Assembly: GCA_015231405.1 (NCBI GenBank)
Contig: JADGBR010000009.1
Location: 25,423 to 89,422, forward strand
Direction of reading: 5' to 3'
Length of the DNA: 64,000 nucleotides
DNA from: Candidatus Omnitrophota bacterium
GTDB taxonomy: Bacteria > Omnitrophota > Gorgyraeia > Tantalellales > Tantalellaceae
The notes under the pieces were generated by a model. The model made no database searches. It saw nothing but the letters and a program-made list of their open reading frames with translations, and was not told the origin of the DNA. The position numbers and the translations under genes are program-made. Below are positions 1-64,000 of this stretch, piece by piece (position 1 is the stretch's first letter; the number at the start of each line of letters is the position of its first letter).

Positions 1-210
1 AGCCATCTTCATCTCCAGAAGCGACCCTGCCCTTATTACCATAATATCTCCTGGATGAGATGTTCTGGCGTATTCCAGCGCTGTTTCACCGATATTCTCA
101 TCGGTCATCATGTTGTCCTTCGTGAGCTCGGAGATATTCATATTGTAAAGGCTGAGGTCACGTATCACCGGGACCATCACCGGCAGATCTATCCGGCTGA
201 GAAAATCCCC
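1..210 (-). other. Start of the shared C-terminal domain in D (the remainder lies beyond the window start)
   Basis: Translation of 300-1 gives IRRISANTSRPVTALTPRKIREIKAGMSDLGDFLSRIDLPVMVPVIRDLSLYNMNISELTKDNMMTDENIGETALEYARTSHPGDIMVIRAGSLLEMKMA. This matches the C-terminal domains of A (FLPVIMPLINDLGLYNMNFSEI), B (LPALPDVSGLKDNGMYYNLEM) and C (LPVMMAEINDLSMYNFNLCDI). Confidence 0.6.
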
Positions 211-3200
211 GAGATCGCTCATTCCGGCTTTGATCTCTCTGATCTTACGTGGGGTCAGCGCCGTGACGGGACGGGAAGTGTTAGCGGAGATACGTCTTAT
301 ACGATCGGCATTATTTTTCATGAATCTCTGGGTTTCCATGCTTTCGAGTTTCTGGATCAGGGCTATCACCGCCTCCATGTGATCTCCACTGTTCTTGTCC
401 AGATCTTCGGCCTTCAATATTCCTATAGAAAAGGTGTTAACCGAACGCGCGCATCCCAAAAGACTTTCCATATTCCTTAGCCTTGCCCTTTCATTTTCCG
501 GGACCGGCAATGGAACAAATAACACACTCGGGACCATATTTAGTTTTTCCGCGGCGTCCGTTGTGAGGAGATCATACCCTTCGACGCCTATGACCATATC
601 CTTTTCAAAAAACACTTCGGGAGTCTCGCTACCCGGAACCTCAGGGCGCCTTTCATCTTTTTCCTCAGGTTTTACCACTCGTTCTCCCGCGAACCGTTTA
701 CCGACAATGATCACCAAAACGGCCAAACTCAAAGCTACGCACAATATCACTAGGGGAAGATGGTTCGAGGCCAGGTTCGCGAATAATCCCGCCGCGTTAT
801 CACTTGCCGCCTGTTTCAGTCCCGCATCCTGGCCAAATAGGAGTGTTGTGAAAGCGTCGGCTACAGGCCCTGCTTTAGTTGCCGATAGCCCGAAATATTT
901 CTCGGCGTAATACAGCGGCATCAGGAAGCATAGATACAGTATGGTAAAGAAAGCTACCCCATATGTCCATAATTGCCTGAACCCGGAATGCCTCATGTAT
1001 AAATACGCCTTATCCCATTTTTCAGCCAGAAAATGCCTGAGCTCATTAAGCGGTTTCAATTCCTGCCGGGCGTATATTCTCTGAGGCAGACGGTCCAACC
1101 CGACCGGAAGTACCTTTTCGGTATATGGCCAGACATTATCGAGCCGCCACCTGATCTGGAACCACATTATTCGCGCCGCCGCGTTCAGGTTAACGAAATA
1201 AAGCGGCATATAGAACGATTTTGACAGATGGTACACGTAATAATATGGGATCAGCCCTATGCGGAGGTGTACTTTAAGCATATTTGACACAAGGACCGTG
1301 GCCATGAGCAATATACCAGAGAGCATCACCGGCAGAAAGACCGATGTTTCGATCATGAAAAAAGCCGTTAACGCTAAAGCGAAGCCAATGACAAAAGTGA
1401 GAAGACCGGGGCGGAAATATCCGTACAGGAATTTATCCCTCTCGGCTTTCAGTGTCTCTATACGGACCTTTATCGCCTCGGCGATAAGGATCCTTCCCCT
1501 GGTGACGGCCCCGTCCAACGGCCGAGACGGGTCCCCATAGTAGTCGGATAACAGGTCCGCGAAGAATACCGGCCTCCCGCCGTCATTTTTTTGTTTATCA
1601 TAATCCCTGTCACCGTGAATAAGCCATTCCCTGAACCTGGATATTACCTCACGGCTCATCCTATCTTTCTCGCGGGGTCCTATGATAGCCGCGTCGGCCC
1701 TTATGGCGTTGATCTCATTTACGGCGTCCTCCAGGTACTTCAAATCCTTGGTTACCCAGTTCGAAACGTCATCCTGTTGGAAATTTCCGGTCGCGCCGGA
1801 TCCTACTTTCAGAAGATCGGCTTCGAATTCATCGATCCTGTCGCCGTAAAAATCCCTTATACCCCTTGTGATCTTCTCGCGGCCTCCTAGCTTATTCTTG
1901 AAAAGCGCGGTCACATTGTGGTAGACCTGATAGAAATAGAACGTCATCATTATGGAAACTCCCACCGAGGCGGCGGCTATGAACCAGATATCCCACGGCA
2001 GCCATGTTTTCATGCTCTCGCTGAAAACGTGTACCATCCCGGATAGCCCCGACGGGTCTCGCGCCAACATGCTCGAAAGAGGCTTTCCGGCCCACAACGC
2101 GGCCCTTTGAAGTATCTCAGCGCCTACAAAAGCCAGGAAGTAGAAAAATGTCACGGCGAAACTGAGTGCCGTAAAAATAGTCGAAGTGAAACCCGAATCC
2201 AGCATTATGTTTATGAAGAAATTCCCCCAGCCGATCTGTTTTATCCTGTCCTCGACCTTTTCGGGCTGTTCTATGAAACCCCGGCGGGCGAGGAATAAGG
2301 TGAACGAACGGCTCAGCCGGTAGCTTAGCAATGCCCCTAGTACGGCGCCAATGGATGTCCCAATGAGCCCCAGGACGATCCCGTTCCTTAATCCCAGTAA
2401 ACCGCCCGCAATGCCCGCTAAGCCGAACGTAAAGAGAGGGATACAGATACTTAGAGACGCGCCGAGTATTGCAGAAGAGGAGACTATCATTATCCACCTT
2501 GACCGCTGCCCGTGCCAAGCGAAACCCATAGGACCTGCCTGTTCCAGTACTGAGGCACCCATGTCTGTATAATAATAGACTCTCTTCCCTCTCTGGCTGA
2601 CTCTCATACCCAGGGCCTTATCCTCGGTAGTATCGTCCCTGGGATGCATACCTAAAGGCTTGAGAATATTCAATTCCGCCATGATCTCCAGCATACGGCC
2701 CTTTGTTTCACCATCCAGATCCTCATGGACGTTTATCCTCGCTTCTTCGAGTATGTCCTCAACCTTACCACGCGCTGTCCTCGTTCCGTCATGTTCATAC
2801 CCTGTCATCGACCTCGACTCGAACCAGTTCGAAAGTCCGTCCAGATGGAATACCGTATGTGTCTTGGATAAACGCATTATCGCTCCCCACCCTCTTTCCC
2901 TCCCCATTCTCACCAGGGACGACGAAAGGATGAAAGCGCCGTAATACCCTATGACCGGCATGAGGATCGTAGTGGCCATCACTATAACGCTCGGGCTGAA
3001 CGCCATAATGGTCTCAACTGAACCCGCTATACCCAGGACCATGCCCACTAATGTCGCGACAAGCGCGATAGGGCTTCTCGGAGCCACCAGGCCGAATTTT
3101 ACCGGTCCCCAGCCGTTATAATCCAGATGAAAGGACTTATTGAGCCCGTAAGGGAGCTGAACCGGCATGCCCTGCATCACGGACGGTCCTTCTCTTTCTC

Positions 3201-6200
3201 TCATCTCCTCTATTATGTATTCCTCCCTCGTGGGATAAACCCCGGCACCCGGCTTAAAGATCTTTTTCATCATATCGCCTACAGGGTCACCGTCCTCGGC
3301 CAGAAATGCCATCTCAACATACCTGTCATATTCTTCCGATATTCTCACGCCCGCGTACAGGTCAATGTTCCACCTTATAGCCTCGTTGTAAAGAGTTCTG
3401 TTCCTCCTTATAAGATTCTCCGGAAGTATATTCTCGGGACGCGCCGTATATGTACCATCATCGTTCCTCTCCATTATCTCACGGGTAAGGCATCCGACCA
3501 GGTTCTTAACGCGTTCATATCCGGCTGAAACCGTCCAATAATGGAAGAGCTGGGGTTCATTGTCCTCGTCAAGTATCTCCCAGATCTCCGGCATGGCCTT
3601 AAGCCCTTCCTGGAAATCGACCAGCATATCCGTGTAAGCCATATTCGTCCCGCTGGGTTTTGATAAAGGCTGGTTCTGCTGGCCCGGCTGGTTCGGTATA
3701 GGCACAGGCTCTGGATGCGTCCTCACGCGCATTGGGTCCATGCCTATTGCCCTGGCCGCCTGCTCTCCGGACGGCACTATATTCATCGCGCCAAGCGTTA
3801 ACGGTATTATGGTCGCGAGCGAAACATTGAACCTGTCGGGCGGGTAATGCCCCTTGGTCACCGCGTGGTCTATACTCCGGGCGGCGCAGCTGGCGGCCGT
3901 CGGCCCGGGCATGGTAGGACGCATGACGTCGATATCCGTAGCCAGTTTCCTGGCCAGGTCCACCACCCCGTTATGTCCCAATTCGTCGTGAATGGCCCGG
4001 AGAATAGCCCTGTTATCAACAACCCCAGGGTCAGCGACAAAACCTGAATAATCAGGCATGCCATCCGCGCCGTTAAGGATACCCGTGCCCGCGAGCAGCC
4101 TCAGGGTCTCTTCCCTTAAAGGAGTGGGCGAAGTTCTGGTTCCTCTTAACCGCCTTATCACGCTGGCCAGAACGGCCGGACCCAGCGAAGAGTTCTTGTC
4201 CGCCCAGGTCGGGTTGTTGAAGAACTGCGGCGGTGTATCCAAAAGATTGAACAGGCTCATCACAAGTTTCACCTGATCGATCCCGTTCAGGTATACGTAA
4301 TGGTAATTCCTTATGGTCCTCCCTTCCGCCCCGGTCTCAGCCTCTTCCGGGGTCTGCGCTTCCACTCCGGCTATTGATTCCGCCACCTGATACTCGCTGT
4401 CGGTAACGAAAGTACGTGTCTCTTTCCAGAAGAACCCGTTCGATTTCAACCAGGGCTTGAGGAACATCGTCGAGATCATGAACGCCGTGCCGCCCGTCAC
4501 AAGGAACATCTTGAAACCCATATTGAGCCATGTCGCGCTTTTGTCTATACCTATCGACAACGGGCCCAGCGTCAGGACCTCAGGCAATAAAGGTATCACA
4601 AACCAGTATAAAGCATGGCTGATAGCCACCAGTATGCCTACCGCGACCAATACCGTCCTCCCATGCCTTTTCAGAACGGTCTCGAGCGCTGACAATGAAC
4701 CAAGCCTACCGTGCTCCACGCTTTCCCTGGCAGCTACATGAGCCCTGTTCCTTTTAGCGTCAAGCGGATCAACGAAACCCTTGATGTTCTCCAAGAGCAC
4801 CGCTGTCTCCCATAATTCGTACGGCACAGTATGGGCGAACAACTCCTTGCTCTCTCTTTTAGTACCAGAAGGCCAGGTCATAACCCTGCCCATCCGGTCT
4901 GTCTCGAGCCCTCCGGCATAGACACCCGACCCCGGCACAATGGCGTCATCGCCGAAGCCTGACAATACGAACCCCCCGGATGTTCCGGCGTTAACGTTAT
5001 TATCATCCTGATTGAACGACAGTTTCCGCCATCCGCCGCCGTTCTTTTCAGGGTACATGTCTTGCACGAGTATCCGCTTATACCGCATCTCGTCAACCAC
5101 CCATACACGCCATCTAAAGTCTGTTTCCCCGCCAGAATCGATCACATGCTCGGCGTCGCCTTTTAGAGCTTGTGCCTCTATTCTGGAGATCGTTATCGTA
5201 TCGAAAATAGCCTGGTACGCCGACAGGTCCGTGGTCAGGCTGTTCACGTCCGGGAGGGGCACTCGCATCGGGATGCCGACTATACTATCGGCCACAAGCT
5301 GTCTCATCCTCGATGTCACGGCGTCATCAGCGGCGTCGGGAGCGATAAGCTTTTTTAACGTTTTTTCGGCTTCGTCAAGATTGTCCAATACCATCTGCAT
5401 GGCCTCGGATTGCGCGCGAGCGTATATTAGCCTTTTCCGGGATACAGACCGGAGAACCTCGTCCCTCAGCCAGAAAAACATGGGAAACCACCGGCGTTCC
5501 AGAGACTTCCATTCTTTTTTGTTGACCGTAATCGTCTTTCTCTCGATCTTCGCCGGCCAGATAAGGCTTATCCCCATTATTATTATCCCTGTAAGCCATA
5601 GATTATTGTTCGGAAAATTCAGGATACCGGCTAACCCCATTGCCCATAACCCAAGAGCGGCTAGCCCCGTGACCATCACACAAAAAGCGGTCCCGGGCCT
5701 GGTGGATTTTCCGGTTTCCCACAAGAGCCAAATGGGTTTGGCCATATTTCCCATATCGGTGGCTTTCTTTGACCGCCTCCCGACATATTTATCTATTATT
5801 TTCACGACCTCGCCTACTCCTTTTTTCCGGGCCTCAAGATCTATCCCGGCCGCTCCAGGGACAGGTGCCGGAGCGGGTGCAGGTGCCCGTGCCGGCGGAA
5901 CTACGGGAGGCACAGGGTCACTATAGGGATGATCTTTACTCCACCGCCATTCGGTTATCTTACGTTTAATAAGCCCCACGCTGAATATTAAAAGCGCCGC
6001 GGCCAGACCGTAAATCGTCATATTCATCATGAAAACTTTCCTCGAGTTGACCTCGTCGGAAATATATGTCAAAGCACCCGGGCTATGGAGGTTAACCATC
6101 GTCACCGCCTGGTCAATTGCCTGGTCCCTCCTCAGGCTTTTCACCTTTTTCGCGTAAACTGTGTCTCCCTTCTCTACCGATACCGCCAGCTCGTAGAGTA

Positions 6201-23538: not shown

Positions 23539-23639
23539 ATGACACTTCCTTTTTATTACCTTTATTCATTAAATGTTTTAATAAGTTTTTAATTATTTTT
23601 AGCCTTAATTTTTCCTTATTATTGGAATTTATAAGGTCA

Positions 23640-23668
23640 TTATACTCCTTAGGCGATAAAAAAGTCAA
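23640..23668 (-). promoter_or_regulatory. Candidate sigma70-type promoter for gene D, TTGACT-17 bp-TATAAT
   Basis: On the minus strand the -35 TTGACT is the reverse complement of 23663-23668 and the -10 TATAAT is the reverse complement of 23640-23645, with a 17 bp spacer. The predicted start site near 23633 would give a ~95 nt 5' UTR to the ATG at 23538. The region 23539-23740 is strongly AT-rich. Confidence 0.4.
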
Positions 23669-23741
23669 AATAAATATTTCAACTTTTTTATTTTTTACTT
23701 CAACACGCCGATTATTAAAATACCTCAGTTCTTTTCTGAGT

Positions 23742-23769
23742 AGCGTCAAGAGACTAAGCCTGTCATTTT
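23742..23769. repeat. Left terminal inverted repeat (IR-L)
   Basis: gtcAAGAGACTAAGCCTGTCATTTTTCC. The core 25 nt are the perfect reverse complement of 25663-25687. Confidence 0.7.
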
Positions 23770-23845
23770 TCCCTGTGCTGCACGTCTGCACCGAGCGGGG
23801 TACGGACATCCTCTCCAAGCCTTCCCCCGGGAATTTCTTAACGCA

Positions 23846-24010
23846 TTTCACATGCCGTTTTTAGACCTTGCAAATTCACCCTCCTCCGTCTTCGGCTTCG
23901 GAGGGCGAGCTGCAAGCAAGGAGGTTGTCATAAAAACGGCATGCGAAATGCTAAAATTCCCGAAGGGGCCCCTTTGCTCTCCGAGGCTGTCCGCACCCCG
24001 TTTGATGCGT
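23846..24010. repeat. Nested-palindrome element, copy 1 (about 165 bp)
   Basis: A 13-bp perfect inner inverted repeat CATGCCGTTTTTA / TAAAAACGGCATG flanks a central hairpin CCCTCCGTCTTCGGCTTCGGAGGG, followed by TAAAATTCCCGAAGGGGCCCCTTTGC. The element is about 85% identical to the reverse complement of copy 2. Confidence 0.6.
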
Positions 24011-24065
24011 TTGAGAAGTTCGGTAAGGATCGCGTTAAGACCCTCTGGGATCCGCTATGTTCGTT

Positions 24066-25427: not shown

Positions 25428-25662
25428 AAAGTTTATTGACGATTTATGATATTGCGAGTTTTCATACTTGTTTTCGTGTGACGGGTAAGATTCGCGAGCG
25501 GACGGGGGCGGGCGAGCACTGCAGCAACTCGCCGCCGGAAGGATAACAATAATTTACACATCTCTGTGAATCAAACAACTGCAGTTTAAAAATAACAGGC
25601 GAATTGTGAAGCGCTCGAGAACGCATGCGGTCGATCGCGAATCTCGGTTGTCGGACGGTTAA

Positions 25663-25690
25663 GGAAAAATGACAGGCTTAGTCTCTTAGC
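25663..25690. repeat. Right terminal inverted repeat (IR-R)
   Basis: GGAAAAATGACAGGCTTAGTCTCTTagc. The core 25 nt are the perfect reverse complement of 23745-23769. Confidence 0.7.
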
Positions 25691-46921: not shown

Positions 46922-46970
46922 CAGTTACATGTTAAAATTTAAACACCTAACATTCATCCTATATGTTATT

Positions 46971-58900: not shown

Positions 58901-61900
58901 TGTTCCAGCGTATGGCCTCGTCATATAGAGCCTTGTTCCTCCTTATCAGGTTCGAAGGGAGAATATTCTCAGGATGCGCGACCACTTCTCCTTCTTCCGT
59001 CTCGTCGAGCATTTCGCGGGTCAGGCATGCAACCACGCTTTTTACGCGTTCATATCCCGTGGTAACGGTCCAGTAATGGAATTTCTGGGGCTCATTATCC
59101 TCGTCGAGTATCTCCCATATCTCCGGCAGAGCTCTCCTTCCTTCTATAAAATCCACATCGATCTCGCTGTAAGCCATATTCGTGCCGCTCGGTTTTGACA
59201 AAGGCTGGTTCTGCTGGCCAGGCTGGTTCGGTATAGGCACCGGCTCGGGATGGGTCATTACCCTCATAGGGTCCATGCCGACGGCTCTCGCCGCCGCCTC
59301 GCCCGCGGGGACTATATTCATCCCGCCCAGCGTCAGCGGTATGATGGTAGCCAACGACACATTGAACCGGTCCGCCGGATACTCACCGTTGGTCACGCCA
59401 TGAGCTATGCTCCGTTCCGCGCAGCTCCCGGCCGTAGGGCCCGGCATACACGGCCTCATCACGTCGAGATCGGTGGCGAGTATCCTCGCGTATCCGACAA
59501 CTCCTTCATGTCCCAGCTCGGCATGAAGAGCCTCTAGTATTTCTCTATTGTCGATAACTCCCCTGTCAGCGGCGAATCCTGAAAGGTCAGGTTGACCAGC
59601 CGCGTCGTTGAGTATCCCTGTCGCCGCGATGAAATCCAGGGCTTCAGGCCGGAGCCGCGCGGGATGGGCCTCTGTTCCCCTTAACCTTTCAATTATCCTT
59701 TTTAGGAGGGCAGCGTCAAAGCCGGAATTCTTATCCGCCCAGGTCGGATTCCCGGCGAACTGCGGCGGAGTGGGTACGGCGTTGAACATGCTCCTTAAGA
59801 GTTCTATCTGGTCATAGCCGTTGATATACACATAATGATAGTTCCGCATCGTCCTGCCGACCGCGCCTGTTTGGGCCTCTTCGGCTGACTGCTGATCCTC
59901 GCCCGCTATCGATTCCGCGACCTTGTACTCATCGTCCGTAACGAACGTCCTCGTCTCTTTCCAGAAGAACCCGTTCGATTTCAGCCACGGTTTGAGGAAC
60001 ATTGTGCAGATCATGAACGCCGTACCGCCTGTCACGATGAACATCTTGATGCCCATATTCACCCATGTTGCGCTTTTGTCTATCCCTATCTCTAAAGACC
60101 CCAGGCTCAAGACTTCAGGGAGCGCCGGAAGACCGAAGAAATATATAGCGTGGCTGACAGCGACCAGGATGCCGACGAGGACCAGCATCGTCCTGGCGTG
60201 CCGTTTCAGCACGGTCTGGAGCGCGGCCATAGACCCTAATCTGCCGTGTTCCTTGCTTTCCCTGGCGGCGATATGCGCCCTGTTCTTTTTGGCTGCCAGA
60301 GGATCGGTATACCCTTTAAGGTTCTCGATAAGTACCGTGGTTTCCCATAACTCATAAGGCACGGTATGCGCGAAAAGCTCTTTGCTCTCTTTTTTCGTTC
60401 TGGAGCTCACCACCTTAAGAGCCCCGTTCGGCTTTGTCTCGAGCCTTTCGGCGTACGCGCCTGAGCCCTGGACAATACCCTCGTCCCCGAAACCGGGGAG
60501 CACGAACCCGCCGGATGTACCGGCGTTAATGTTGTTATCGTCCTGGTTGAACTTTATCTTGCGCCATCCCAGGCCTTCGAGATCCTGTACAAGCATCCTC
60601 TTATACCTCATCTCATCCACTACCCATACGCGCCACCTCAACCGTTCCCGGCCTTTGGAATCCAGGACCCTAAGAGCGTCATTCATAAGCGCGGTCGTTT
60701 CTATCCTGGCTATCCTGATGGTGTCGAATATGTCCTGGTATGCCTGGAGATCCAGGGTTAAGCTGTTAACGTCCGGAAGCGGCACCCTCATGGGAATGCC
60801 CTTGATATTTTCGGCGACGAGCTTCCTCATTAACGCCGTTTCCGGGTCGTCTTCTCCGCGAGCGGCAATAAGCTGGCGAAGTCCCGTCTCCACTTCGTTC
60901 AGATTATCATTGACCAGTTTCATCGCCTCGGCCTGCGCCCTGGCGTATTTCGCCCTTTTGGAGACGGGGCTGGCCAACAATTCCTTAACGAACCATCTCA
61001 GCATCGGGAACCATTGCCGTTCGATAGCTTTCCACTGTTTGTTGTTTACGGATATTGTCCTTATCTCTTTCCTCTCGGGCCAGATCAGACTTATAGCGAT
61101 GATGACAATCCCGCTTATCCAAAGGTTATTGTTCGGGAAGACCATTATCCCCGTAAAACCGGCAAGCCATATCCCGAGGGACGCCATACCGATGACCGTT
61201 ATACCGAATGCGGTCGAAGGCCGTATCGACCTTTGAGCTTCCCATAATATCTCTATAGGTTTTGCCATATTGCCCATATCTGTCGCTTTTTTCGCGCGCC
61301 TGCCAACGTACTTGTCTATCAATTTTATGACTTCGCCCACTCCTTTATTGCGCGCTGTTTTTTCAACGCCCGGACCTGGCGCGGCCGCCGGAGCCGACGG
61401 ACCTTTCGTCGGTCCGACCGGTTTAGCTTCCCCAGATCCCCCTAAAGGAAGGACCGGTTCCGTATACGGCTTGGCCCTCCACTTTCTTAGCGTCCCGACA
61501 TTCTTCCTCAAAATGTTAGCGCCGAACAGCAATAACGCCAAAGCCAGACCGTACATGCTTATGTCCATTATGAATGTTTTCCACTCGTCGACGTCGTCAG
61601 CCATGTAGGTAAGCGTCCCGGGCTTATGGAGGTTGACCATGGTCACCACCTGGTCGACCGCCTGGTCACGCCTCACGCTCTTGGCTTTTGTCGCGAACAC
61701 AGTATCCCCTCTCGCGACCGATACGGCCTGTTCGTATATGACCGAATATATCTTGTCTATACTTTCTTCGGTCACCCCTTCCAGAGCGTATTTTCCCATA
61801 AGCACTTCTATGGCCGCCTTGATCTTGGGGTTATCTGAAATAGCTTTCACCTCATCGCTGATGTCCCCATATTTGGAATTGACCGTCTGATCGGCCCAGG

Positions 61901-63980
61901 ACACAAGCTTAGCGATAAATTCGTCCGTATTGACCGACCCGGGCTCGACACCCGCGAGAGTCGATATGACCTCTTTTACGAGAGTCACCGCCTTCAATGT
62001 CCTCATGATCTCCGGGCTTACTAGAGGATCTCGTACATTCCTTTCCTTCATCAGCGTATATACCGCCGTTAATAGCTCCTTATTATCGTGCGCCCCGAGT
62101 TTGTTATCCGGGTCTATCCCGTCGAGGAACTCCGTCAGCCTCTTACCCATGGCCCCTTCGGGAAAAACCTCGTATATTGTGCTTCTATCCGAGCCGAATT
62201 TAAGTAGGGACCTCTGATCCGGGACCTTCCCTGCGCTGACCCTCATAGCACCGTTGATCACATCAACACCGCCCAGCGAGTTATCGCTGAAAACGGTCTG
62301 CTCCGGATCCTCAACGATCCTTTGCAGCATCATCCCCCGGATGAATACGTCCCCTTCGAACGATTCCGAACTTCCGCGTCCTATGGATATCCTCATTCCA
62401 AGTTCCGCTATCCTCGTGGGGTCGACTTTTTTCTGAAAACCCGGCCGTACCCTTACAGTTATCCAGCCTTCGGTATTGTTCTCTCGGTTGCCCCTGGTGA
62501 TATTTATCGTGAACCCCGTGCTTTCCTCCCCGTTTCCCGTCTTTATGTTCACCCAGTTGCCCTCATGCCTGCCGACATCCCCGGACCATCCCTTGTTCGC
62601 GCAGGACGCCTCGACACCGTTCGCGATTATCCTGTTCTCACCCAGGAACGCCGATCTGCCCTCTTCCCCGTCGAACTTCACCTGGTAAACGAATTCCCAG
62701 TTCCTCAGGTCCACCGTGCCGTCCTGGCCGACCTTAAGTTCATCCTCTTTTACGCCTTCTAAAAGCTCTTCAACCGGCATATATATTGAAGCGCATCTGC
62801 CTTCATCGTTCCCCCCCAGCTGTCTGCCCCGGATACTGATATGATATTTGAGAACGCCTTTCTGTGTGGCTGCGTCCCATCCAAGTACAGGCACCATGTT
62901 GGTCAAATTCCTTCCTGTCGCCCTGCTGAATCCGGGTAAAGCCGTATGACGCTCGTAAACTACGGAATTAAAGTAGGGTATGGGCGTTTTTATCCCGTTC
63001 CAGGCCACAAGACTGGCCAGCTCACTGTTTATCTGGTAGTACTTGTCGTCGGCGATCTCTCTGCTTATCTTCCCGTCCCTGACCGACTGGTCAAGTATGC
63101 GTCCGATGGCTATCAGTTTGGCCGTTATTATGTACGGGGCGGCCTGTTTCATTTTCTTCCATTGTTCCTGTATGTATTTCTCGCTCGCGCCCTCGTACAT
63201 CGCCCTGAATCCCTCGACCGGTTCCTTACTTCCTAGCATATTTATATCGTCGGTCACCCATCCCTTTAGATAATCCACATCCCAGTTGTTCTTGAGCTGA
63301 TCGATGAGATAATCCAGTATCTCGGAATAGGAATGTCCTTCCGCGAACTGGGCAAGACCCAAGAGCGATAAAGGCGGCCTTAACAGATACTCGATCTTAA
63401 TGGTCTTCGCCCCCTCGATCATTTCCTCGCTCAATACCTTGTATATCTCTATGACTTCGGGCTGGCTTACCTCAAGGTCTCTGGCGCCGTTCCTCTCTAT
63501 CTCATTAACGGTACCCCTGATCTTCATCCGCACATTGGGGTCTTTGGCCGAAACCCCGTAGAAGTATTTGAACACCCCGGGCTGTGAATCCACTGGAACA
63601 GTGAAAACATAATCTTCCCCGGCCTCTGCCGTCTCACCTTCCGGGCCCATCTGACCCGCTTGTCCGGACTCTCCTTTGGCACCTTGGGCTCCTTCTTTTC
63701 CCTCTTCCGCTTTAGTGACCTTAGCCTGGCCGCGATCCCGGGACGGCACAACGATCTTTTTTACGCGGAAGAAAAGTACCGGTTTCTCGCCGCTATTATC
63801 GATACGTCCGTTGCCAAGAAATTTCACGTCTTTGACCTCGCGCTCCGCTCTTGACGCCATACGCTCGTCGACCACATCGACGCGAAAGATCTTACCGGTA
63901 TCCCTGGACAGGGGGTCCCGTATCCTCACATATGCGAATGACGGGGCCCTCAGATCATCGTACCCTATATCGGCCAGCAC
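46971..63980 (-). CDS. Giant multidomain polytopic membrane protein (gene C). At least 5669 codons lie in the window and the 5' end lies beyond the window end. Domains are tandem repeats, transmembrane-rich modules, two guanylate-kinase domains, a HIT-like region, a SAM methyltransferase, a ROK-like sugar kinase domain and the shared C-terminal domain
   Basis: ORF from the track, open to the window edge. TAA at 46971-46973. Multiple hydrophobic helices at residues 806-822, 925-970, 1262-1330, 1785-1845, 1985-2170, 2345-2400, 2480-2510, 2560-2582, 2860-2940 and 4430-4490. Confidence 0.9.
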   Translation of the reverse strand: MLADIGYDDLRAPSFAYVRIRDPLSRDTGKIFRVDVVDERMASRAEREVKDVKFLGNGRIDNSGEKPVLFFRVKKIVVPSRDRGQAKVTKAEEGKEGAQGAKGESGQAGQMGPEGETAEAGEDYVFTVPVDSQPGVFKYFYGVSAKDPNVRMKIRGTVNEIERNGARDLEVSQPEVIEIYKVLSEEMIEGAKTIKIEYLLRPPLSLLGLAQFAEGHSYSEILDYLIDQLKNNWDVDYLKGWVTDDINMLGSKEPVEGFRAMYEGASEKYIQEQWKKMKQAAPYIITAKLIAIGRILDQSVRDGKISREIADDKYYQINSELASLVAWNGIKTPIPYFNSVVYERHTALPGFSRATGRNLTNMVPVLGWDAATQKGVLKYHISIRGRQLGGNDEGRCASIYMPVEELLEGVKEDELKVGQDGTVDLRNWEFVYQVKFDGEEGRSAFLGENRIIANGVEASCANKGWSGDVGRHEGNWVNIKTGNGEESTGFTINITRGNRENNTEGWITVRVRPGFQKKVDPTRIAELGMRISIGRGSSESFEGDVFIRGMMLQRIVEDPEQTVFSDNSLGGVDVINGAMRVSAGKVPDQRSLLKFGSDRSTIYEVFPEGAMGKRLTEFLDGIDPDNKLGAHDNKELLTAVYTLMKERNVRDPLVSPEIMRTLKAVTLVKEVISTLAGVEPGSVNTDEFIAKLVSWADQTVNSKYGDISDEVKAISDNPKIKAAIEVLMGKYALEGVTEESIDKIYSVIYEQAVSVARGDTVFATKAKSVRRDQAVDQVVTMVNLHKPGTLTYMADDVDEWKTFIMDISMYGLALALLLFGANILRKNVGTLRKWRAKPYTEPVLPLGGSGEAKPVGPTKGPSAPAAAPGPGVEKTARNKGVGEVIKLIDKYVGRRAKKATDMGNMAKPIEILWEAQRSIRPSTAFGITVIGMASLGIWLAGFTGIMVFPNNNLWISGIVIIAISLIWPERKEIRTISVNNKQWKAIERQWFPMLRWFVKELLASPVSKRAKYARAQAEAMKLVNDNLNEVETGLRQLIAARGEDDPETALMRKLVAENIKGIPMRVPLPDVNSLTLDLQAYQDIFDTIRIARIETTALMNDALRVLDSKGRERLRWRVWVVDEMRYKRMLVQDLEGLGWRKIKFNQDDNNINAGTSGGFVLPGFGDEGIVQGSGAYAERLETKPNGALKVVSSRTKKESKELFAHTVPYELWETTVLIENLKGYTDPLAAKKNRAHIAARESKEHGRLGSMAALQTVLKRHARTMLVLVGILVAVSHAIYFFGLPALPEVLSLGSLEIGIDKSATWVNMGIKMFIVTGGTAFMICTMFLKPWLKSNGFFWKETRTFVTDDEYKVAESIAGEDQQSAEEAQTGAVGRTMRNYHYVYINGYDQIELLRSMFNAVPTPPQFAGNPTWADKNSGFDAALLKRIIERLRGTEAHPARLRPEALDFIAATGILNDAAGQPDLSGFAADRGVIDNREILEALHAELGHEGVVGYARILATDLDVMRPCMPGPTAGSCAERSIAHGVTNGEYPADRFNVSLATIIPLTLGGMNIVPAGEAAARAVGMDPMRVMTHPEPVPIPNQPGQQNQPLSKPSGTNMAYSEIDVDFIEGRRALPEIWEILDEDNEPQKFHYWTVTTGYERVKSVVACLTREMLDETEEGEVVAHPENILPSNLIRRNKALYDEAIRWNIDLYAGMKISKEYDKYSKMAEKARPGDPVGDMMVKIFDRETGVYKSKEEYIFEEMREREGPSVMQGIPIQMPYGLNKSFFLDYNGWGPVKFGLVAPRTPIAIIATILGIVLGLIGSTLTISAFSLSVIVLANAVFLPIIGYYGAFIFSSSLVRVARERGWDFIMRMAQTHTVFHLDGLSNWFESRSMLGYENDGTRTARGKVEDILEAARVDVHENLATAEKGRMLIMMAELSGLKPLGMHPRDDTTEDKALGMRVTQRGKRVYYYTDMGSSVLEQAGPMGFAWHGQRSRWIMIVSSAAILGASFSLTIPIFTYGFAGIVGGILGLRTGIAVGLTGTLLGAIAGLLLGYAASRGFTLLLCRLGFIEQPEQVENRIKQIGWGNFFINILLDSGFTSTIFTALSFAVTFFYFLAFVGAEILGKVAVFSGMPLSSMLARDSSGLSGLVHVFSETMKTWLPWDIWFIASASVGVTIMMTFYFYQVYHNVTALFKNKLGGTEKISKGISDFYSDRLEEFRNDLAKVESGATGGFQQDDVTNWVTKDLKYLEDAALEITAINLRGDITPAEKKRSSRQVITMLRKWLLHGDRDFDKQKRDGGRSTFFADLLSDYYSSPALNVNGAVQRGRALIAESIRTRIGTLEAEMNKFSRGQFRPGLLTFVLGAVLVLNAVFMVQTYMFLTLMVPGVMLIGTVILFQLFKWYLPVGRMPYFYIYYISKAFYMPLYFVNLNAAARLVWYQIRNRLDNVWPYTEKVLPVGLDRLPQRIYAQQQLRPDKELWHFYSEKWDKFYLYMRHSGFRQLWTYGFAFFTILYLCFLMPAYYAKKYFGLSAVKAAPVADAFRTLITGQDMSAVQAASGGSSGLLAQIAQNHLPLVILGGAVLFALVLVLVNKRFSGERTRRHSKIQGDPDCPVVITVSGPSGVGKGTVIDGHPGRGIKGIFERYPNAQRVVSYTTRTVRPTEQDGREHRFIDRAEFEKMRDEGKFLQWIDFGGNFYGVTRDSIDEILAEGKDALIDLDAAGAAAVRNTYSDRIVDLFISPIATDRLEEGDTAGTLSKESENAVRAVLIYRILTRTFPDNQDIPEPEVIEKALNETGALPEAIRPLVDDNIGARLDSVINETKKFGEFSIVMSNVFWDQAAIIDRLISEIKAKKAELKERDMNRAAWRTRIIRRLIGLLAGLGVYFAAGVARGGGRREVISQIAELSMKKTSGEILSGSVIPFFGSGLLTGILLVIVVLVVYKFIRVAFPLKKVPAKPEPKEITIAPELERALATPTEEQIKSNPIILVFSGPSGVGKRRMLNRFAETHPNAVRVVSYTTRAPREGEVEGRDHKFISEAEFEKMADTNKFFHTVKFGDMRYGIVKDEIDSAISSGKDVIVDIDVEGAKVVRETYPGNIVDVYVSPIAIDRLTRRMPDTGRIEPAALEEATRVLKERLVREEYGGAEPGEAVIAANRGIQERMSRGVRELRRWKDFHYLVANINGNEDAAVNEVSEYYRREKITRSLKEFNFGVDSRGPPDNALADFVSMRVKQVYDSGVMPYPYDPETIQLDMGNGAKTSITYIPGRGQYKPARPTEMTEEMFRDHQEFTFTQKGARRCWACQLKKFSDYALFKSSFSEDGVPTPRKYVSWINMNVTFRDHILLATEEASPQTLNRDKLVDSLTFADNLGPEFEGFFNTRPHGSVGHFHAHYYRKSSSIWEGLDAEDGAAGKIRKKNIREIGDVEVSELDNWNAGVLLTGWSKTQIAGILSYWIDELNESVKPYIISFRVKGDGKYEVFFKPVTDNSTMTVLGVKQSGAVSYHYGNGICSSPRMWEKIQSDPKGAARDIKRWIKKTTNRSFRPERPEPDMTLKGREMELAAVGEDKAGIQDAVQARPFEMLSRLAGDPIERFFRRLFGREKGASNVVLEFGCGSGEQSNWLVSKGVNCIGVDISVRYLAKASEMAKIYGLRSLATGVENITKQWIDQAKAIASKTKKPFVVYSLIKEDGRIPLEDNSVDGVTIHRVYSTLLDDNMKRKVLSEIYRVLKPGGYFSGLDFLKIAPELSEKDENVKLRNLAISRRYAVHAEVLRRMNERGTLPEYLNADTVMRNFVASADLSRNEDALIILQKRNYSRQDWEFSKTKAAVPDVIRDMTYDEFFTEKSYTADQFMEALDAGIVSIQTVVQHVSGPRFQEFVEDSGMEVLGVKSFRYLHEGGKGWSAATSLFAEKPKTPRSRSVSGVFRFAEKDLDLISGRFEGLGTYPETISAILEELGKGLKDEEDHWFYSRIIRLTGAPDLRQNRDGKKTYYGRVPFVKEDGKRGKLINAATPVFDFDKDDTLDKGETSLSDDSARRLAAMIALGRKVGINTAKALEELRTVKNSLTGETGLELYTPLRDAMIANVSTENWDASIEDVADDILTDLFDLFLDTSATKLVPKRGARSQYELDIEPSFQAGFSSDVSAKIMDLLTYHGAHEPYMELNHALARQREILTAKGFGGYANLPEMNIYAMDLPEGHPLRAKCGPRVITKLLYRPFGYKPKPEKKTPEYEAVLEARKEVEKVLVKLFEGMHERNELGDISIIPVVAGKNAIDLNMVQVLGRTPYPVAMRHEPFAPLEIGTYQRIQKDRAIEHQAREGYVDITYHDNEALAGNGLAVTQRLMQNPIPGIDLKVVAADLNKPEELAKATIVAERYIGGGMHGKAAYREAEVLYADLARGGMAPDKIEGLYYLGGEFDEIGSYLDRAIENMSDGRKGPASAVHPFRALGAFVHAAAGITAYILLILGAIAAKDDTLVNIALWGGIPVFVLPALFHAYAAIIVFAKMWEHDREFSGGKVRWMTHLKDAMVTPIMTSKLKLTHEQINDLVGNSKDRAEKVNMLRTAASGRAYLGQPAEVGTTSLLSDDQIFALVDMTNTHNSLARSILAHEMAPSFMGMGLLTHIKAMYTMIWDYVKALHLSIELSSEANMRQFFSDRLRTYDQRYGKGFKPVTYWHSVMREARGRYREYMKDVEIVFDMGKDGSQRFVVPLPVNSNEMPEIRELLVRYLTIVLRNRMEAIGPQYVYLKYDDSVADMVKEARDAMYTDDFFPTIDAINNTYRVVRRKAMGINSEEELQIFISEEYKRLEREYLSGDRASKGELTKDESDNLKAQAEINLGGYEFQFIRAVTREELSRMDSIKAKGIKVRRENMQEARDLNLKGLKNIAPGDFMAGVDVGGSDVKLLLYKGKDIIFYKKYNWAPENFTKGSTEHVDTMRDLIYIMELKAILSQRTQPDQELDVLEKEIDSVSYRSDVSSAENEAASEASIVKIRSIIERAGENEYIKSRLYSASGEKQKILAGVGISWPDIIVDNLIVGGDTAKTKGLTKEEFNEIVTPMADTLKISLGGVPVVIKNDGDVGAFWASVELNRGNVLALALGTSLAGGYVPHSGVLGNLRTYASRMIIDMRKDNEVSYEKFPGTPTGIAALYLSQKNIMILAKEKGLDLGPVKSAGRAQQLKYVQKILNENLPGADIVREIYDEMGLYMASFLAEISDYYDHRDLIRTVVVTGRCFESPEGNRIMLGNGRDKGRIHRVLNDSYPEIADLEIMLAEELAGNDPSVNAFAQAMGAAYLANQEVTRLRNAEQAQGLAGTSVESMVIGVETDSTQAELDKYMASTGLGSVKVLALPKGNEKEENMGILDTYRRQHNLLWAGMADQQEIGGRRKLRQAIGALVRQIEINETRLFLKKRAEDIKALTIMTPETVEEIARAKGVWKEILGEIKLPVMMAEINDLSMYNFNLCDIADKTLTKLDTGTMNYIDDVNKQPGIVEMTVGSLGEARIQAESFRLRNPKKLKLVLTVAMEDSGLSPVDAAALDADIAKLNSDKDAILKKMGIDSILRKDDLTIIKRSEHDQAVENKMIERVQQYGKGNVAVVDMISKTRRERRMPEGAIYMEYNDIATSEVLDATLKLLSVKGDKAKVTIKGLTMNAFGHFIFVRKIEAINIEELKNEFKRYQEILTRA
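46974..47723 (-). other. Domain in C: shared C-terminal domain
   Basis: IKLPVMMAEINDLSMYNFNLCDIADK ... NEFKRYQEILTRA. Confidence 0.6.
48231..49373 (-). other. Domain in C: ROK/glucokinase-like ASKHA sugar kinase domain
   Basis: PGDFMAGVDVGGSDVKLLLY (4874-4893) is the phosphate-1 loop, cf. GIDIGGTKI. VLALALGTSLAGGYVPHSG (5079-5097) is the phosphate-2/adenosine loop, cf. LTLGTGIGGGIV. The ROK CxCGxxGCxE zinc motif is absent. Confidence 0.45.
52701..53303 (-). other. Domain in C: class I SAM-dependent methyltransferase fold
   Basis: Motif I is NVVLEFGCGSGEQSNWL (3594-3610), followed by an acidic motif II loop. Motif post-III is VLSEIYRVLKPGGYFSGLD (3708-3726). Confidence 0.6.
53781..54383 (-). 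other. Region in C: HIT-like (histidine-triad) nucleotide hydrolase/transferase-like motif region
   Basis: RPHGSVGHFHAHYY (3370-3382) fits the H-phi-H-phi-H-phi-phi triad. The assignment is tentative. Confidence 0.3.
54561..55073 (-). other. Domain in C: guanylate kinase-like domain 2, preceded by a transmembrane helix
   Basis: GSGLLTGILLVIVVLVVYKF (transmembrane), then PIILVFSGPSGVGKRRML ... RVVSYTTRAPREGEVEGRDHKFISEAEFEKMADTNKFFHTVKFGDMRYGIVKDEIDSAISSGKDVIVDIDVEG. Confidence 0.7.
55641..56183 (-). other. Domain in C: guanylate kinase-like domain 1, preceded by a transmembrane helix
   Basis: HLPLVILGGAVLFALVLVLV (transmembrane), then VITVSGPSGVGKGTV ... RVVSYTTRTVRPTEQDGREHRFIDRAEFEKMRDEGKFLQWIDFGGNFYGVTRDSIDEILAEGKDALIDLD. 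These are the Gmk P-loop and TTR...E.G..Y.F signatures. Confidence 0.7.
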
Positions 63981-64000
63981 CGTGAAATTGTCCTCGCCAA

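Follow-up and report, generated by a model that had tools for sequence, protein, structure and literature searches.

Four consecutive giant genes from a Candidatus Omnitrophota contig probably encode membrane-anchored multi-enzyme proteins, built as head, cargo and tail, which form a smaller-sized branch of the giant or 'Archaeovorin-like' proteins of this phylum. As part of that reading, the genes are probably a tandem array of anciently diverged paralogues of phylum-wide large modular proteins. The class is already known, as publications on giant multi-enzyme, SecA-bearing membrane proteins from this phylum go back to 2022. As far as we found, the new elements are a conserved protease-like head, a conserved tail and the tandem arrangement. 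Term searches of West-Roberts 2023 and Nielsen & Lui 2026 found no TIKI-like head, conserved tail or tandem head-to-tail layout in either paper.

Four giant genes in tandem

The window, meaning the whole stretch of 64,000 nt that was analyzed, holds four genes, g1 to g4, which are consecutive and co-directional on the minus strand, each being a separate cistron. It is part of a 93,998-bp contig. Coordinates below are on the minus strand, except for an insertion element to which no strand was assigned. An earlier note on this DNA had described four consecutive minus-strand giant ORFs covering more than 95% of the 64 kb, and this was borne out on both points. The frames comprise at least 5,675, 4,036, 2,824 and at least 7,846 codons and, with their stop codons, fill 95.55% of the window (61,152 of 64,000 nt). 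The C-terminal 5,675 codons and the stop of g1 lie at 46971..63998 (coding 46974..63998; MBF0216447.1), and the gene runs off the right window edge. The deposited g1 has 7,175 aa (21.5 kb), and the part in the window is 100% identical to its residues 1501-7175 (P0034); the N-terminal 1,500 aa are outside the window, past the right edge. Two genes are complete and start with ATG: g2, with 4,036 aa (12.1 kb) at 34698..46808 (coding 34701..46808; MBF0216446.1, HQL30_05575), and g3, with 2,824 aa (8.5 kb) at 26151..34625 (coding 26154..34625; MBF0216445.1, HQL30_05570). The N-terminal 7,846 codons of g4 (at least 23.5 kb) run from an ATG at 23538 off the left window edge (1..23538). By alignment with g3, an estimated 190 aa or so lie beyond that edge, making g4 the largest gene of the array at about 8,000 aa. 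The products of g1, g2 and g3 match proteins of a Candidatus Omnitrophica/Omnitrophota MAG at NCBI exactly.

Each gene had also been credited with its own ribosome-binding site and start codon and with a real in-frame stop. The first part stands for g2 (GGAG, 9 nt before the ATG), for g4 (AGGAAG) and for g3, where the site is weaker (AGGA), while the GTG at 63980 is not the real start of g1. The stops of g1, g2 and g3 are in the window and that of g4 is outside it. Promoter-like sites were seen upstream of g2 (46985..46956) and of g4 (TTGACT-18-TATAAT, 23668..23639), but these are at most suggestive, given that promoter- and terminator-like counts in the window do not exceed the shuffled expectation. 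The spacer between g3 and g4 contains an IS66-family insertion element (23719..26051; Pfam DDE_Tnp_IS66, E=8e-17 and 3e-11) with long imperfect terminal inverted repeats (I1-I5), whose transposase is broken into three minus-strand ORFs (24066..25427). No counterpart of this region was found in the plasmid collection searched. Neither tRNA genes nor tandem DNA repeats occur in the window.

Among 100 base shuffles, stop-free runs reached 298 codons at most. With a per-codon stop probability of 0.050, the log10 probability of meeting no stop ranges from -63 to -176 for the four frames. Stop-free frames of 8-23 kb cannot have arisen or persisted by chance.

A conserved head and a conserved tail

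A head module of about 600 aa is common to g2, g3 and g4 at 27-41% identity, and a tail module is common to g1, g3 and g4. The earlier note had taken all four genes to be paralogous at both termini. This holds for the genes just named but not throughout, because the deposited g1 lacks a head and the tail module is missing from g2, of which just the last 15 or so residues are alike in pattern; the head-cargo-tail layout is thus not universal even within this array. By hydropathy, a hydrophobic signal-anchor helix with basic residues ahead of it opens each of g2, g3 and g4. Tiki and PrgY, to both of which the head is likened, are membrane-tethered. The g3 head (32706..34625) has its signal-anchor helix at aa 13-31, followed by a TIKI/TraB/Ere-fold core with D91, H93, E121 and H488 as candidate catalytic residues. 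The g4 head (21562..23538), a hydrophobic anchor and a TIKI-like module, is 40.7% identical to it by blastp. The g2 head (45189..46808), with a hydrophobic anchor or signal at aa 15-33 and the TIKI-like module, is the most divergent of the three at 27% to the g3 and g4 heads by blastp, although its D-x-H, E and H columns are invariant in the head alignment.

An AF2 model of the head (pLDDT 80.5, pTM 0.74) has an alpha/beta core in which helices flank a central parallel beta-sheet, and in this model the core matches the TIKI/TraB/ChaN/erythromycin-esterase fold. The core of the g3 head is interrupted by a helical insert of about 300 aa. D91, H93, E121 and H488 are invariant across 24 aligned head sequences, so the head is predicted to keep a catalytic tetrad of D-x-H, E and H. 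The head is absent from Pfam, where all 24 sequences at E up to 5 gave no consistent match and none that was significant to the TraB_PrgY_gumN, Cofac_haem_bdg or Erythro_esteras profiles. One of the 24 matched Cofac_haem_bdg (ChaN) marginally (E=0.064), and the g3 head did not match at all. Chance matches such as troponin C were all that a head profile returned from PDB sequences. Members of the TIKI/TraB/PrgY/ChaN/erythromycin-esterase superfamily include RRSP of MARTX toxins, HopBA1, Bcr135/136, EreB/C and ChaN. Compared with this superfamily and its catalytic 2His/2Glu (GxxH-type) motif, the head has the same order of acidic-x-His, Glu and His, and its His-to-Glu spacing of 28 is that of RRSP, with the tetrad E3900/H3902/E3930/H4030, and of Bcr135, with H85/E113 (PMC6254334). 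It differs in that its first acidic residue is Asp instead of Glu, in the helical insert and in being fused to thousands of cargo residues.

Searches of species-representative genomes gave 489 copies of the head confirmed by tblastn, which head large ORFs and are often in tandem. Named homologues come nearly all from Omnitrophota assemblies. The 78 head loci that we kept are all from Omnitrophota assemblies, some of whose records are titled 'uncultured Planctomycetia'. The ORF led by the head exceeds the fetched DNA in 65 of these 78 loci, reaching more than 4,000 aa. In 21 of 50 loci, the head lies just downstream of the end of a co-directional ORF that has 1,500 aa or more. Pairs of heads, 29-42 kb apart on the same strand, were seen on at least four contigs. 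With blastn, the window had no match at the nucleotide level among the 78 loci, and there was no close relative among the species representatives.

The g1 tail, about 390 aa long (46974..48158), ends in ...EELKNEFKRYQEILTRA and was recognized by blastp to the g3 tail, by alignments and by exhaustive HMMER searching. The g3 tail (26154..27338), recognized in the same ways, ends in ...LELREAIEGYRRALISA and is 74% identical to a JGI fragment (P0033). The window edge cuts the g4 tail after the start of the module (1..597), where g4 residues 7657-7854 align with g3 residues 2431-2635 at 29% identity (E=1.5e-15). The tail closes on a near-invariant amphipathic motif, ...ELRxEIExYxxxLIAA. Word-indexed searches with the tail, as a single sequence or as a 10-sequence profile, found just fragment P0033, and the exhaustive HMMER search found it in 62 of 1.84 billion cluster representatives. 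The matches reach within a few residues of the C-terminus in nearly all 62, with a few partial ones stopping up to about 30 residues short. A recognizable tail directly precedes the next head in six loci, as in the window. P0057, P0062, P0050, P0081 and P0085 each combine a head and a tail in a single protein and carry other metabolic cargo, for example enolase and phosphorylase.

Enzyme cargo and the shared membrane block

At the level of sequence, the cargo was shown to be made of divergent enzyme domains that keep their predicted catalytic motifs. Two guanylate-kinase-like domains are present in g1. One (55764..56168; Pfam PF00625, E=8e-20; also NCBIfam) has the P-loop GPSGVGKGT; the other (54648..55052; PF00625, E=2e-24; PDB 1gky, E=2e-20) has the degenerate P-loop GPSGVGKRR, in which the Lys is not followed by Ser or Thr. 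The same gene carries a class-I SAM-dependent methyltransferase (52815..53192; Pfam Methyltransf_11, E=8e-15). In g2, phosphoglucomutase/phosphomannomutase (PGM/PMM) domains I-III (42552..43760; PF02878, PF02879 and PF02880; PDB 2fkf, E=4e-35) keep the motifs TASH, with the active Ser, DSDGDR and GEESGH. A CofD/YvcK-like region of g2 (36306..36854) is sub-threshold, scoring 26.4 bits with PF01933 (E=5e-6) where the cut-off is 30. The phospho-His and PEP-utilizer part of a PTS enzyme-I-like protein is found in g3 (28827..29927; PF02896, E=5e-31; TIGR01417, E=2e-32), with the His in TEHVAI, the NDL motif and the Cys in ICGD. The same gene has a weak HPr-like match (28206..28415; PF00381, E=0.004, under the cut-off), with a His in GVHMRV.

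The SecA-like ATPase of g4 (18109..19815) comprises NBD1, the preprotein cross-linking domain and NBD2 (SecA_DEAD, E=7e-20; SecA_PP_bind, E=2e-17; P-loop_SecA). It has GFGKT and DEAD motifs and matches SecA in the PDB with E=2e-35, spanning chain residues of about 91-643; neither Pfam nor the PDB sequence search matched a helical scaffold or wing domain. A GH5-like region of g4, of the clan GH-A TIM-barrel type (10444..11457; DUF4434, E=0.003; mannanase 3vup, E=7e-4), is paralogous to residues 6-338 of the deposited g1 at 41% identity. That N-terminus of g1, which is outside the window, scores 29.3 bits with Pfam Cellulase/GH5 against a cut-off of 23.5.

The earlier note had listed PTS, sugar-nucleotide, kinase, glycoside hydrolase and SecA-like domains as cargo. 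Three of these are well founded, with the PEP-utilizer clear in g3 by Pfam and NCBIfam (the HPr-like part being weak), two guanylate kinases in g1 by Pfam, NCBIfam and PDB, and NBD1-PPXD-NBD2 of SecA in g4 by Pfam and PDB. The glycoside hydrolase is sub-threshold within the window and gains indirect support from the g1 paralogous stretch that passes the Pfam GH5 cut-off. No sugar-nucleotide cargo was found as such, the nearest content being the sugar-phosphate mutase and the sub-threshold CofD-like match. Enzyme families are distinct within each gene, and the guanylate kinase is the only one present twice. All cargo enzyme domains score beneath the NCBIfam full-length cut-offs; given these scores and the one degenerate guanylate-kinase P-loop, catalytic activity of the cargo is not assured. 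Cargo seen so far comprises PGM, PTS enzyme I/HPr, guanylate kinase, enolase, phosphorylase, GH5 and the SecA motor. In a Pfam scan of about 20,000 residues, more than 85% of residues were domain-free and recognizable enzymes made up less than 15%.

The internal cargo of the four genes had been called unrelated, which is wrong for g1 and g4. Residues 8-2608 of g1, counted within the window, pair with residues 5091-7644 of g4 at 65-67% identity (64.9% over 2,611 aa by blastp). The g1 copy of this multi-TM block, about 2,600 aa long (56175..63977), has some 15 hydrophobic helices by hydropathy scan, and the g4 copy (634..8295) was defined by blastp, dN/pS and hydropathy. Over 2,550 codons, the two copies are 67% identical in DNA and 75/82/44% identical by codon position, with a dN of 0.25, a pS of 0.73, a saturated dS and a dN/dS of about 0.1. 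This purifying selection indicates that the unannotated membrane-rich regions are functional and not filler. Invariant TED and QxxRW motifs are present in the g1 block, which also contains a sub-threshold GT2 match (57930..58193; Pfam Glyco_trans_2_3, E=0.0087). A profile-versus-PDB search with this region returned no match. As a lead, the motifs and the sub-threshold Pfam score point to a putative GT2 glycosyltransferase.

A crude Kyte-Doolittle scan gave 17 hydrophobic helices for g1, 25-31 for g4 and 1-4 for g2 and g3. A cluster of about 10 helices in g4 (16255..17604; hydropathy scans) is directly downstream of the SecA-like domain. The same crude hydropathy gave g2 a single N-terminal hydrophobic segment and none later. 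If this segment is a signal anchor, the PGM/PMM domain would be extracytoplasmic, which is biochemically odd.

Known giant proteins, rival explanations and proposed function

Giant multi-TM, SecA-DEAD-bearing multi-enzyme proteins with PGM/PMM, methyltransferase, GH and GT domains have been described from Omnitrophota (West-Roberts 2023, 10.1101/2023.11.21.568195; Seymour 2023, PMC10066038; Nielsen & Lui 2026, 10.64898/2026.06.07.730766). The likeness to Omnitrophota giant-gene clusters that the earlier note had drawn was right, with exact matches to the MAG proteins and head homologues nearly all in Omnitrophota. Its view that the array matches no known gene family and is an undescribed system went too far in light of these publications. 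Seymour et al. 2023 considered ORFs longer than 20 kb in Omnitrophota genomes; the present genome is from Omnitrophota, and g1 and g4 exceed 20 kb while g2 and g3 do not. The Archaeovorin type protein is a 39,678-aa ORF of Velamenicoccus archaeovorus LiM, in a set of genes longer than 90 kb, or about 30,000 aa (10.1101/2023.11.21.568195). With that type, g1-g4 share the phylum, many TM helices (g1 and g4), mostly unannotatable sequence, a divergent SecA DEAD and preprotein-binding unit with no scaffold or wing matched (here in g4 only), and clear methyltransferase content. Of the other contents of that type, which are glycosyl transferase, glycosyl hydrolase, peptidase and NUDIX domains, GH5 is weak in the window and clear in the g1 paralogue, and GT2 is putative, with a sub-threshold score and a QxxRW motif. 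The four genes are 4-30 times shorter (2.8-8 kaa compared to more than 30 kaa) and form an array of separate genes. Archaeovorin-type N-termini have no identifiable domains save C39 and S8 peptidases, whereas g2-g4 have the conserved TIKI-like head, and the Archaeovorin paper does not mention a conserved tail, which is present in g1, g3 and g4. No NUDIX, C39 or S8 domain was found in g1-g4 with Pfam, and the putative TIKI-like head is their whole peptidase content.

The class of Nielsen & Lui is similar in having many distinct enzyme Pfams tiling one polypeptide, among them PGM/PMM I-III, Methyltransf_11 and SecA_DEAD, in membrane-anchored predictions (SP+TM or TM) and in transposase-rich neighborhoods. 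Here too, each gene combines distinct enzyme families, and tandem repeats are missing from the DNA. Flanks with type II/IV secretion genes and GH2 are reported for that class; the window is taken up by the four genes. The catalogue of Nielsen & Lui begins at 10 kaa and all four genes are shorter; no common head, common tail or tandem paralogue array is described in it. Membership of both preprint classes is by resemblance, with genes of 2.8-8 kaa standing against thresholds of 10-30 kaa. Giant1-5 of Apilactobacillus kunkeei (PMC12863079) are described as five consecutive genes for extracellular proteins of 3,000-8,000 aa, alike in being a tandem co-directional array of similar size range that takes up a large share of a small genome. 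They are reported to be surface proteins of a Firmicute, whereas g1-g4 have enzymes, TM bundles and an Omnitrophota-specific head and tail.

With MARTX toxins, g1-g4 share lengths of several thousand residues, conserved ends, swappable internal enzyme modules and a TIKI-family protease module, here the predicted TIKI-like head, but they differ in their metabolic-looking cargo, many TM helices, phylum and genomic organization. We consider it unlikely that they are MARTX-like or polymorphic toxins, that is, giant delivery vehicles whose ends serve export, whose modules are freed by the head or another protease, and whose cargo acts as effectors that are injected into or displayed to host or prey and divert sugar-phosphate, PEP and nucleotide pools. 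Interchangeable cargo bracketed by conserved termini would suit such vehicles, as would the presence of a SecA-like motor and TM bundles and the host-dependent or predatory lifestyle inferred for Omnitrophota. The predicted fold and tetrad of the head are as in RRSP, a MARTX effector protease, and HopBA1, a type III effector. The acidic-then-hydrophobic tail end, which may loosely resemble type I secretion signals, was counted on the same side. However, Pfam found no RTX or glycine-rich repeats, CPD autoprocessing domain or toxin-type effector domains in about 20,000 residues; there are no tandem repeats, and no type I secretion ABC or MFP genes lie within the window. Whole secretion is unlikely for proteins with 17-30 TM helices, and the head is a conserved N-terminal module, not one cargo among many. 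RTX toxin identity was rejected because the defining domains are missing. It is quite unlikely that g1-g4 are polyprotein precursors, in which many ordinary enzymes would be expressed from one message and then released by the head protease as separate housekeeping enzymes. Most of the cargo is of central-metabolic enzyme types whose catalytic motifs are intact, g2, g3 and g4 each bear a protease-like head, and peptidase cleavage has been raised for other giant proteins by West-Roberts et al. (10.1101/2023.11.21.568195). Nevertheless, recognizable enzymes occupy less than 15% of residues and are far from housekeeping equivalogs, well under NCBIfam cut-offs, and the purifying selection on the TM-rich block suggests that the non-enzyme parts are functional and not linkers.

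Surface adhesins or 'coat' proteins serving solely for host attachment have been proposed for Omnitrophota giant ORFs generally and for the V. archaeovorus protein, and the N-terminal signal-anchor helices fit them. For the present genes this is very unlikely, as the cargo consists of enzymes of typically cytoplasmic kinds; Pfam found no Ig-like, cadherin, discoidin, laminin-G, dockerin or TSP3 repeats, and the DNA has no tandem repeats. A repeat adhesin was rejected because its defining domains are missing. An assembly line of the PKS/NRPS type, with the termini as docking domains that order the subunits, would explain tandem co-directional giant genes with conserved termini and a tail immediately followed by the next head, both in the window and at six other loci. 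It is extremely improbable and already refuted by domain content, since Pfam found no KS, AT, ACP/PCP, condensation, adenylation or thioesterase domains in about 20,000 residues, and the head is a membrane-anchored hydrolase-fold module of about 600 aa instead of a short docking helix. There is hardly any likelihood that the array is an assembly artefact, a chimera or a set of decayed pseudogenes read through by chance, even though the contig was binned from a metagenome, the array contains an IS66 element whose transposase is broken, and the block repeated in g1 and g4 might in principle confuse assembly. Frames of 8-23 kb without stops are beyond chance, the g1 and g4 copies at 67% DNA identity are too diverged to collapse and are under purifying selection, and the head-then-giant-ORF and tail-then-head layouts recur across dozens of independent assemblies. 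An artefact was rejected on the purifying selection and the recurrence.

Our preferred reading is that of membrane-anchored head-cargo-tail multi-enzyme proteins, and from the modules present we infer the following function for g1-g4. Each product would be one polypeptide inserted into the cytoplasmic membrane. The head may be an active hydrolase, a protease or esterase, at the membrane surface, where it would mature the giant protein or a partner, or attack envelope or host material. The SecA-like motor would help to thread the protein's own extracytoplasmic segments, as proposed by West-Roberts et al. 2023 (10.1101/2023.11.21.568195). The cargo would act as a membrane-tethered platform for host- or prey-derived carbohydrate, whose likely chemistry would be cleavage by GH5, interconversion of sugar phosphates and phosphotransfer that depends on PEP and nucleotides. 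The tail would be a family-wide assembly, sorting or quality-control signal.

Omnitrophota giant genes are a recognized open problem. They occupy much of very small genomes, have been described as poorly conserved and almost unannotatable, and are presumed to form the basis of a predatory or episymbiotic way of life. The array offers two conserved handles on them, the head, with a hydrolase fold, four invariant catalytic candidates and about 490 copies, and the tail, which occurs almost only at the protein end. Each lends itself to mutation, to separate expression, to processing or docking assays and, as an HMM, to a catalogue of the family. Lengths of 2.8-4 kaa put g3 and g2 within reach of heterologous expression, unlike giants of 40-150 kaa. 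A bolder and rather doubtful idea is that the head and the ...ELRxEIExYxxxLIAA tail define an unrecognized, Omnitrophota-specific processing and sorting machinery for almost any enzyme cargo, which would be mounted on the membrane or delivered in ordered, tandem-encoded sets. In that view, the tail may dock the end of one subunit on the next head, or it may be a secretion or degradation signal. If this is true, the giant genes of the phylum would share a testable mechanistic core and would not be assorted, unrelated long ORFs.

Layout and coding reality of the array

Four giant minus-strand genes, numbered g1 to g4 from the right edge leftwards, fill almost the whole window. The stop-free frame of g1 spans 46974..63998 (5,675 codons up to the right window edge, where it is still open), that of g2 34701..46808 (4,036 aa), that of g3 26154..34625 (2,824 aa) and that of g4 1..23538 (7,846 codons between its ATG and the left window edge, likewise still open). 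Counting stop codons, the four frames take up 95.55% of the 64-kb window, which bears out the earlier note's claim of four consecutive giant minus-strand ORFs covering more than 95% of it. From the base composition of the strand, stop codons are expected once in 20 codons, and 100 shuffles produced no stop-free run longer than 298 codons. Frames this long are impossible by chance.

The genes g1 to g4 are separate cistrons, divided by spacers of 162 nt (g1-g2), 72 nt (g2-g3) and 2.6 kb (g3-g4). The earlier note had given each its own ribosome-binding site, start codon and in-frame stop. Good Shine-Dalgarno sequences were found at g2 and g4 and a weaker ribosome-binding site at g3, but the GTG at 63980 is no true start for g1, which is 7,175 aa in full as called. 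The stops of g1, g2 and g3 are real, but the g4 frame remains open; alignment with the g3 C-terminus showed that about 190 residues are missing at the window edge, and the g4 total is therefore about 8,000 aa. Sigma-70-like hexamer pairs on the minus strand 5' of g2 (TTGACA-18-TAGGAT, 46956..46985) and of g4 (TTGACT-18-TATAAT, 23639..23668) suggest that these two genes may have separate promoters; promoter-like counts over the whole window showed no excess over the shuffled expectation. The g3-g4 spacer holds an IS66-family element (about 23719..26051) with imperfect, unusually long terminal inverted repeats (~100-300 nt) and a transposase broken into three minus-strand ORFs (25098..25427, 24610..25095 and 24066..24662). 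The element had no match in a plasmid collection, and no tRNA genes or tandem DNA repeats were found in the window.

A second line of evidence came from a comparison of g1 with g4. Residues 8-2608 of g1 are paralogous to residues 5091-7644 of g4 over 2,550 aligned codons, with 67% amino-acid identity, so the cargo between the termini is not all unrelated, contrary to what had been claimed. Identity at codon positions 1, 2 and 3 is 75, 82 and 44%. Since dN is 0.25 and pS is saturated (0.73), dN/dS is roughly 0.1 or less. Both copies of this unannotated block, which is rich in transmembrane (TM) helices, have been maintained by purifying selection since an old duplication. The copies share only 67% DNA identity and are thus too diverged to confuse an assembler. 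The giant-gene architecture was found again in dozens of independent assemblies.

Conserved head and tail modules

The N-termini of g2, g3 and g4 consist of basic residues and one hydrophobic helix followed by a common module of ~600 aa (the head), with 27-41% identity among the three. Named homologues from protein searches were almost all from Omnitrophota MAGs, at no more than 49% identity. Scanning one genome for each GTDB species gave 489 tblastn-confirmed head copies, from which 78 loci were kept, all in Omnitrophota assemblies. Many of these assemblies (L003-L005, L007, L008, L017, L019 and others) carry the record title 'uncultured Planctomycetia bacterium', probably through taxonomic mislabelling of Omnitrophota bins. 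The ORF that starts with the head exceeded the fetched DNA in 65 of the 78 loci, with lengths of up to more than 4,000 aa; in the other 13 loci it was complete and measured 598-3,589 aa.

Genomes often have several heads, sometimes two on one contig, on the same strand and 29-42 kb apart. The heads of g3 and g4 match heads elsewhere at 45-48% (about 580 bits) compared to 41% (about 475 bits) for their array neighbours, and the g2 head shows 33% versus 27%. The heads in the window are nearer to those of other genomes than to their neighbours, which makes the array a set of ancient paralogues rather than the outcome of a recent local amplification. The best database match to the g3 head (48% identity) is HQL30_09460, an 855-aa protein on a different, 47-kb contig of the MAG that holds the array (locus-tag prefix HQL30); this MAG thus has at least one further head.

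Tandem arrangement was counted in the 50 related loci whose DNA reached far enough 5' of the head gene. Of these, 21 had an ORF of 1,500 aa or more, in the same direction, that stopped no further than 1.5 kb from the head gene; most of these ORFs were longer than 3,000 aa and extended past the locus edge. In about 15 of the 50, the upstream neighbour was a same-strand gene of ~1,080 aa for an AcrB/AcrD/AcrF-family RND transporter (L002:5734-8997, L009:6016-9261, L036:6077-9310, L067:6224-9610 and about 11 others), which may reflect conserved synteny or a functional tie to export.

Searches against Pfam and PDB sequences did not recognise the head and gave no significant match. An AlphaFold2 model built on a 24-sequence alignment was confident (pLDDT 80.5, pTM 0.74), and D91, H93, E121 and H488 are invariant. 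The TIKI superfamily groups HopBA1, a Bcr-type protein, ChaN, RRSP and PMT, with a catalytic 2His/2Glu motif formed by E3900, H3902, E3930 and H4030 in RRSP and including H85/E113 in Bcr135 (PMC6254334). The residue order is equal in the head and the His-to-Glu spacing is 28 in each protein; a helical insert of ~300 aa precedes the second His of the head (H488). Predicted structure and motif logic thus point to a TIKI/TraB/Ere-type hydrolase that has probably kept its activity, placed behind an N-terminal anchor with its tetrad intact.

A C-terminal module of ~390 aa (the tail) is common to g1, g3 and the truncated g4 at 21-30% identity. Its last residues form an amphipathic stretch of striking conservation, P.I..ID.EELR.EIE.Y..vLIAA-COOH, which also closes giant ORFs that stop just 5' of head genes elsewhere in Omnitrophota; the module itself was recognisable immediately 5' of the next head in six loci. 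HMMER, run exhaustively against 1.84 billion cluster representatives, found only 62 tail-bearing proteins, the longest of 7,175 aa. The tail is almost always terminal: in all but a handful the match stops no more than a few residues before the C-terminus, and the remaining matches are partial and fall up to ~30 residues short of it. Five of the 62 have both modules (999, 2,114, 2,459, 4,972 and 5,080 aa), with cargo such as enolase (P0057) or glycogen-phosphorylase-like and HD domains (P0062). The 999-aa protein (P0085) has a head, part of the tail and almost no cargo, and may be a minimal or incomplete version. Others, g1 among them, have a tail without a head. Structure prediction of the tail gave a poor model. 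The claim that the four genes are paralogous at both termini therefore stood for the heads of g2, g3 and g4 and the tails of g1, g3 and g4, but the deposited g1 is headless and g2 has no detectable tail module, only its last ~15 residues being similar.

Cargo domains and membrane segments

Less than 15% of the residues of g1-g4 match any Pfam or NCBIfam model. The cargo of g1 comprises two guanylate-kinase domains and a class-I SAM methyltransferase; beyond the window, the deposited protein also has a domain of the GH5 cellulase family. That protein begins MALTAQ..., with neither anchor nor head, and has APAKAPEAVP-type Pro/Ala-rich repeats after the GH5 domain (residues ~470-540). In g2 we found domains I-III of PGM/PMM, as well as a CofD/YvcK-like stretch that stayed below threshold. 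The phospho-His and PEP-binding domains of g3 resemble PTS enzyme I, and a weakly matched HPr-like domain comes after them. The SecA-like region of g4 lacks the C-terminal scaffold and wing domains and consists of NBD1, the preprotein cross-linking domain and NBD2; ~10 hydrophobic helices cluster directly after it, so that a putative motor adjoins a TM bundle. A GH5-like stretch of g4, sub-threshold within the window, is 41% identical to the g1 domain.

Catalytic signatures were mostly kept, as judged by motif: TASH, DSDGDR and GEESGH in g2, the enzyme-I-like His and Cys and the HPr-like His in g3, and GFGKT and DEAD in g4. The second guanylate-kinase domain of g1 (54648..55052) retains the GMP-binding SYTTR, but its P-loop, GPSGVGKRR, has no Ser/Thr after the Lys; the domain may serve as a MAGUK-like module for binding without catalysis. 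A crude hydropathy scan counted 17 hydrophobic helices in g1, 25-31 in g4, about four in g3 and the N-terminal one alone in g2. The block common to g1 and g4 has invariant DDTTEDKAL (TED) and GQRSRW (QxxRW) motifs and sub-threshold minus-strand matches to Pfam Glyco_trans_2_3 (g1 57930..58193; g4 about 2300..2700). These hint at what may be left of a processive GT2 synthase embedded in the membrane; the putative GT2 region, run as a profile against PDB sequences, gave no match.

Possible function and relation to published giant proteins

Each product would be a single giant polypeptide tethered in the cytoplasmic membrane, with the head working at the membrane surface, as a protease or an esterase, on its own protein, a partner, or envelope or host material. 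The SecA-like domain might assist translocation of the protein's own external segments, as proposed by West-Roberts et al. The cargo could form a membrane-bound platform processing host- or prey-derived carbohydrate, and the tail may be an assembly, sorting or turnover signal across the family. Topology is the weakest point: g2 has no second TM segment, so that its PGM/PMM would be extracytoplasmic if the first one acts as a signal anchor. Among other explanations, MARTX-like effector delivery is unlikely, though the least unlikely of them. Polyprotein precursors are a somewhat poorer candidate, and adhesin or coat proteins seem improbable. We give very little credence to an artefact, and equally little to a megasynthase with docking termini.

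ORFs over 20 kb, poorly conserved and with no clear function, occur in most Omnitrophota classes (Seymour et al. 2023, PMC10066038). West-Roberts et al. (2023, bioRxiv 10.1101/2023.11.21.568195) defined 'Archaeovorin' and dockerin types among genes >90 kb and described numerous TM helices, divergent SecA DEAD/PPXD domains that lack scaffold and wing, and N-terminal regions generally without identifiable domains save C39 or S8 peptidases. Nielsen & Lui (2026, bioRxiv 10.64898/2026.06.07.730766) catalogued 916 proteins of at least 10 kaa, with membrane anchoring in 94%, transposase-rich flanks and a 'multi-enzyme metabolic' class that includes PGM/PMM, Methyltransf_11 and a SecA_DEAD architecture cluster. 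These very families recur in the array, and g1-g3 match Candidatus Omnitrophica MAG proteins, in agreement with the suggested likeness to Omnitrophota giant-gene clusters.

The array sequence is already public: g2 and g3 match MBF0216446.1 (HQL30_05575) and MBF0216445.1 (HQL30_05570) exactly, and residues 1501-7175 of MBF0216447.1 are 100% identical to g1. All three are annotated 'MAG: ... [Candidatus Omnitrophica bacterium]', as 'hypothetical' or 'methyltransferase domain-containing' proteins, and lie on one 93,998-bp contig. The array is real and striking, but with the phenomenon published and the sequences deposited, the earlier note went too far in proposing a candidate undescribed system. 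The genes g1-g4 fall under the size thresholds of both surveys and are best regarded as small members of the published Omnitrophota giant-protein phenomenon. Searching the two surveys by term gave no description of a TIKI/TraB-like head, a conserved tail or tandem paralogue arrays. The present analysis adds a TIKI-like head spread across the phylum, a tail that is rare and terminal, and the finding that head-bearing giant genes commonly stand in tandem.
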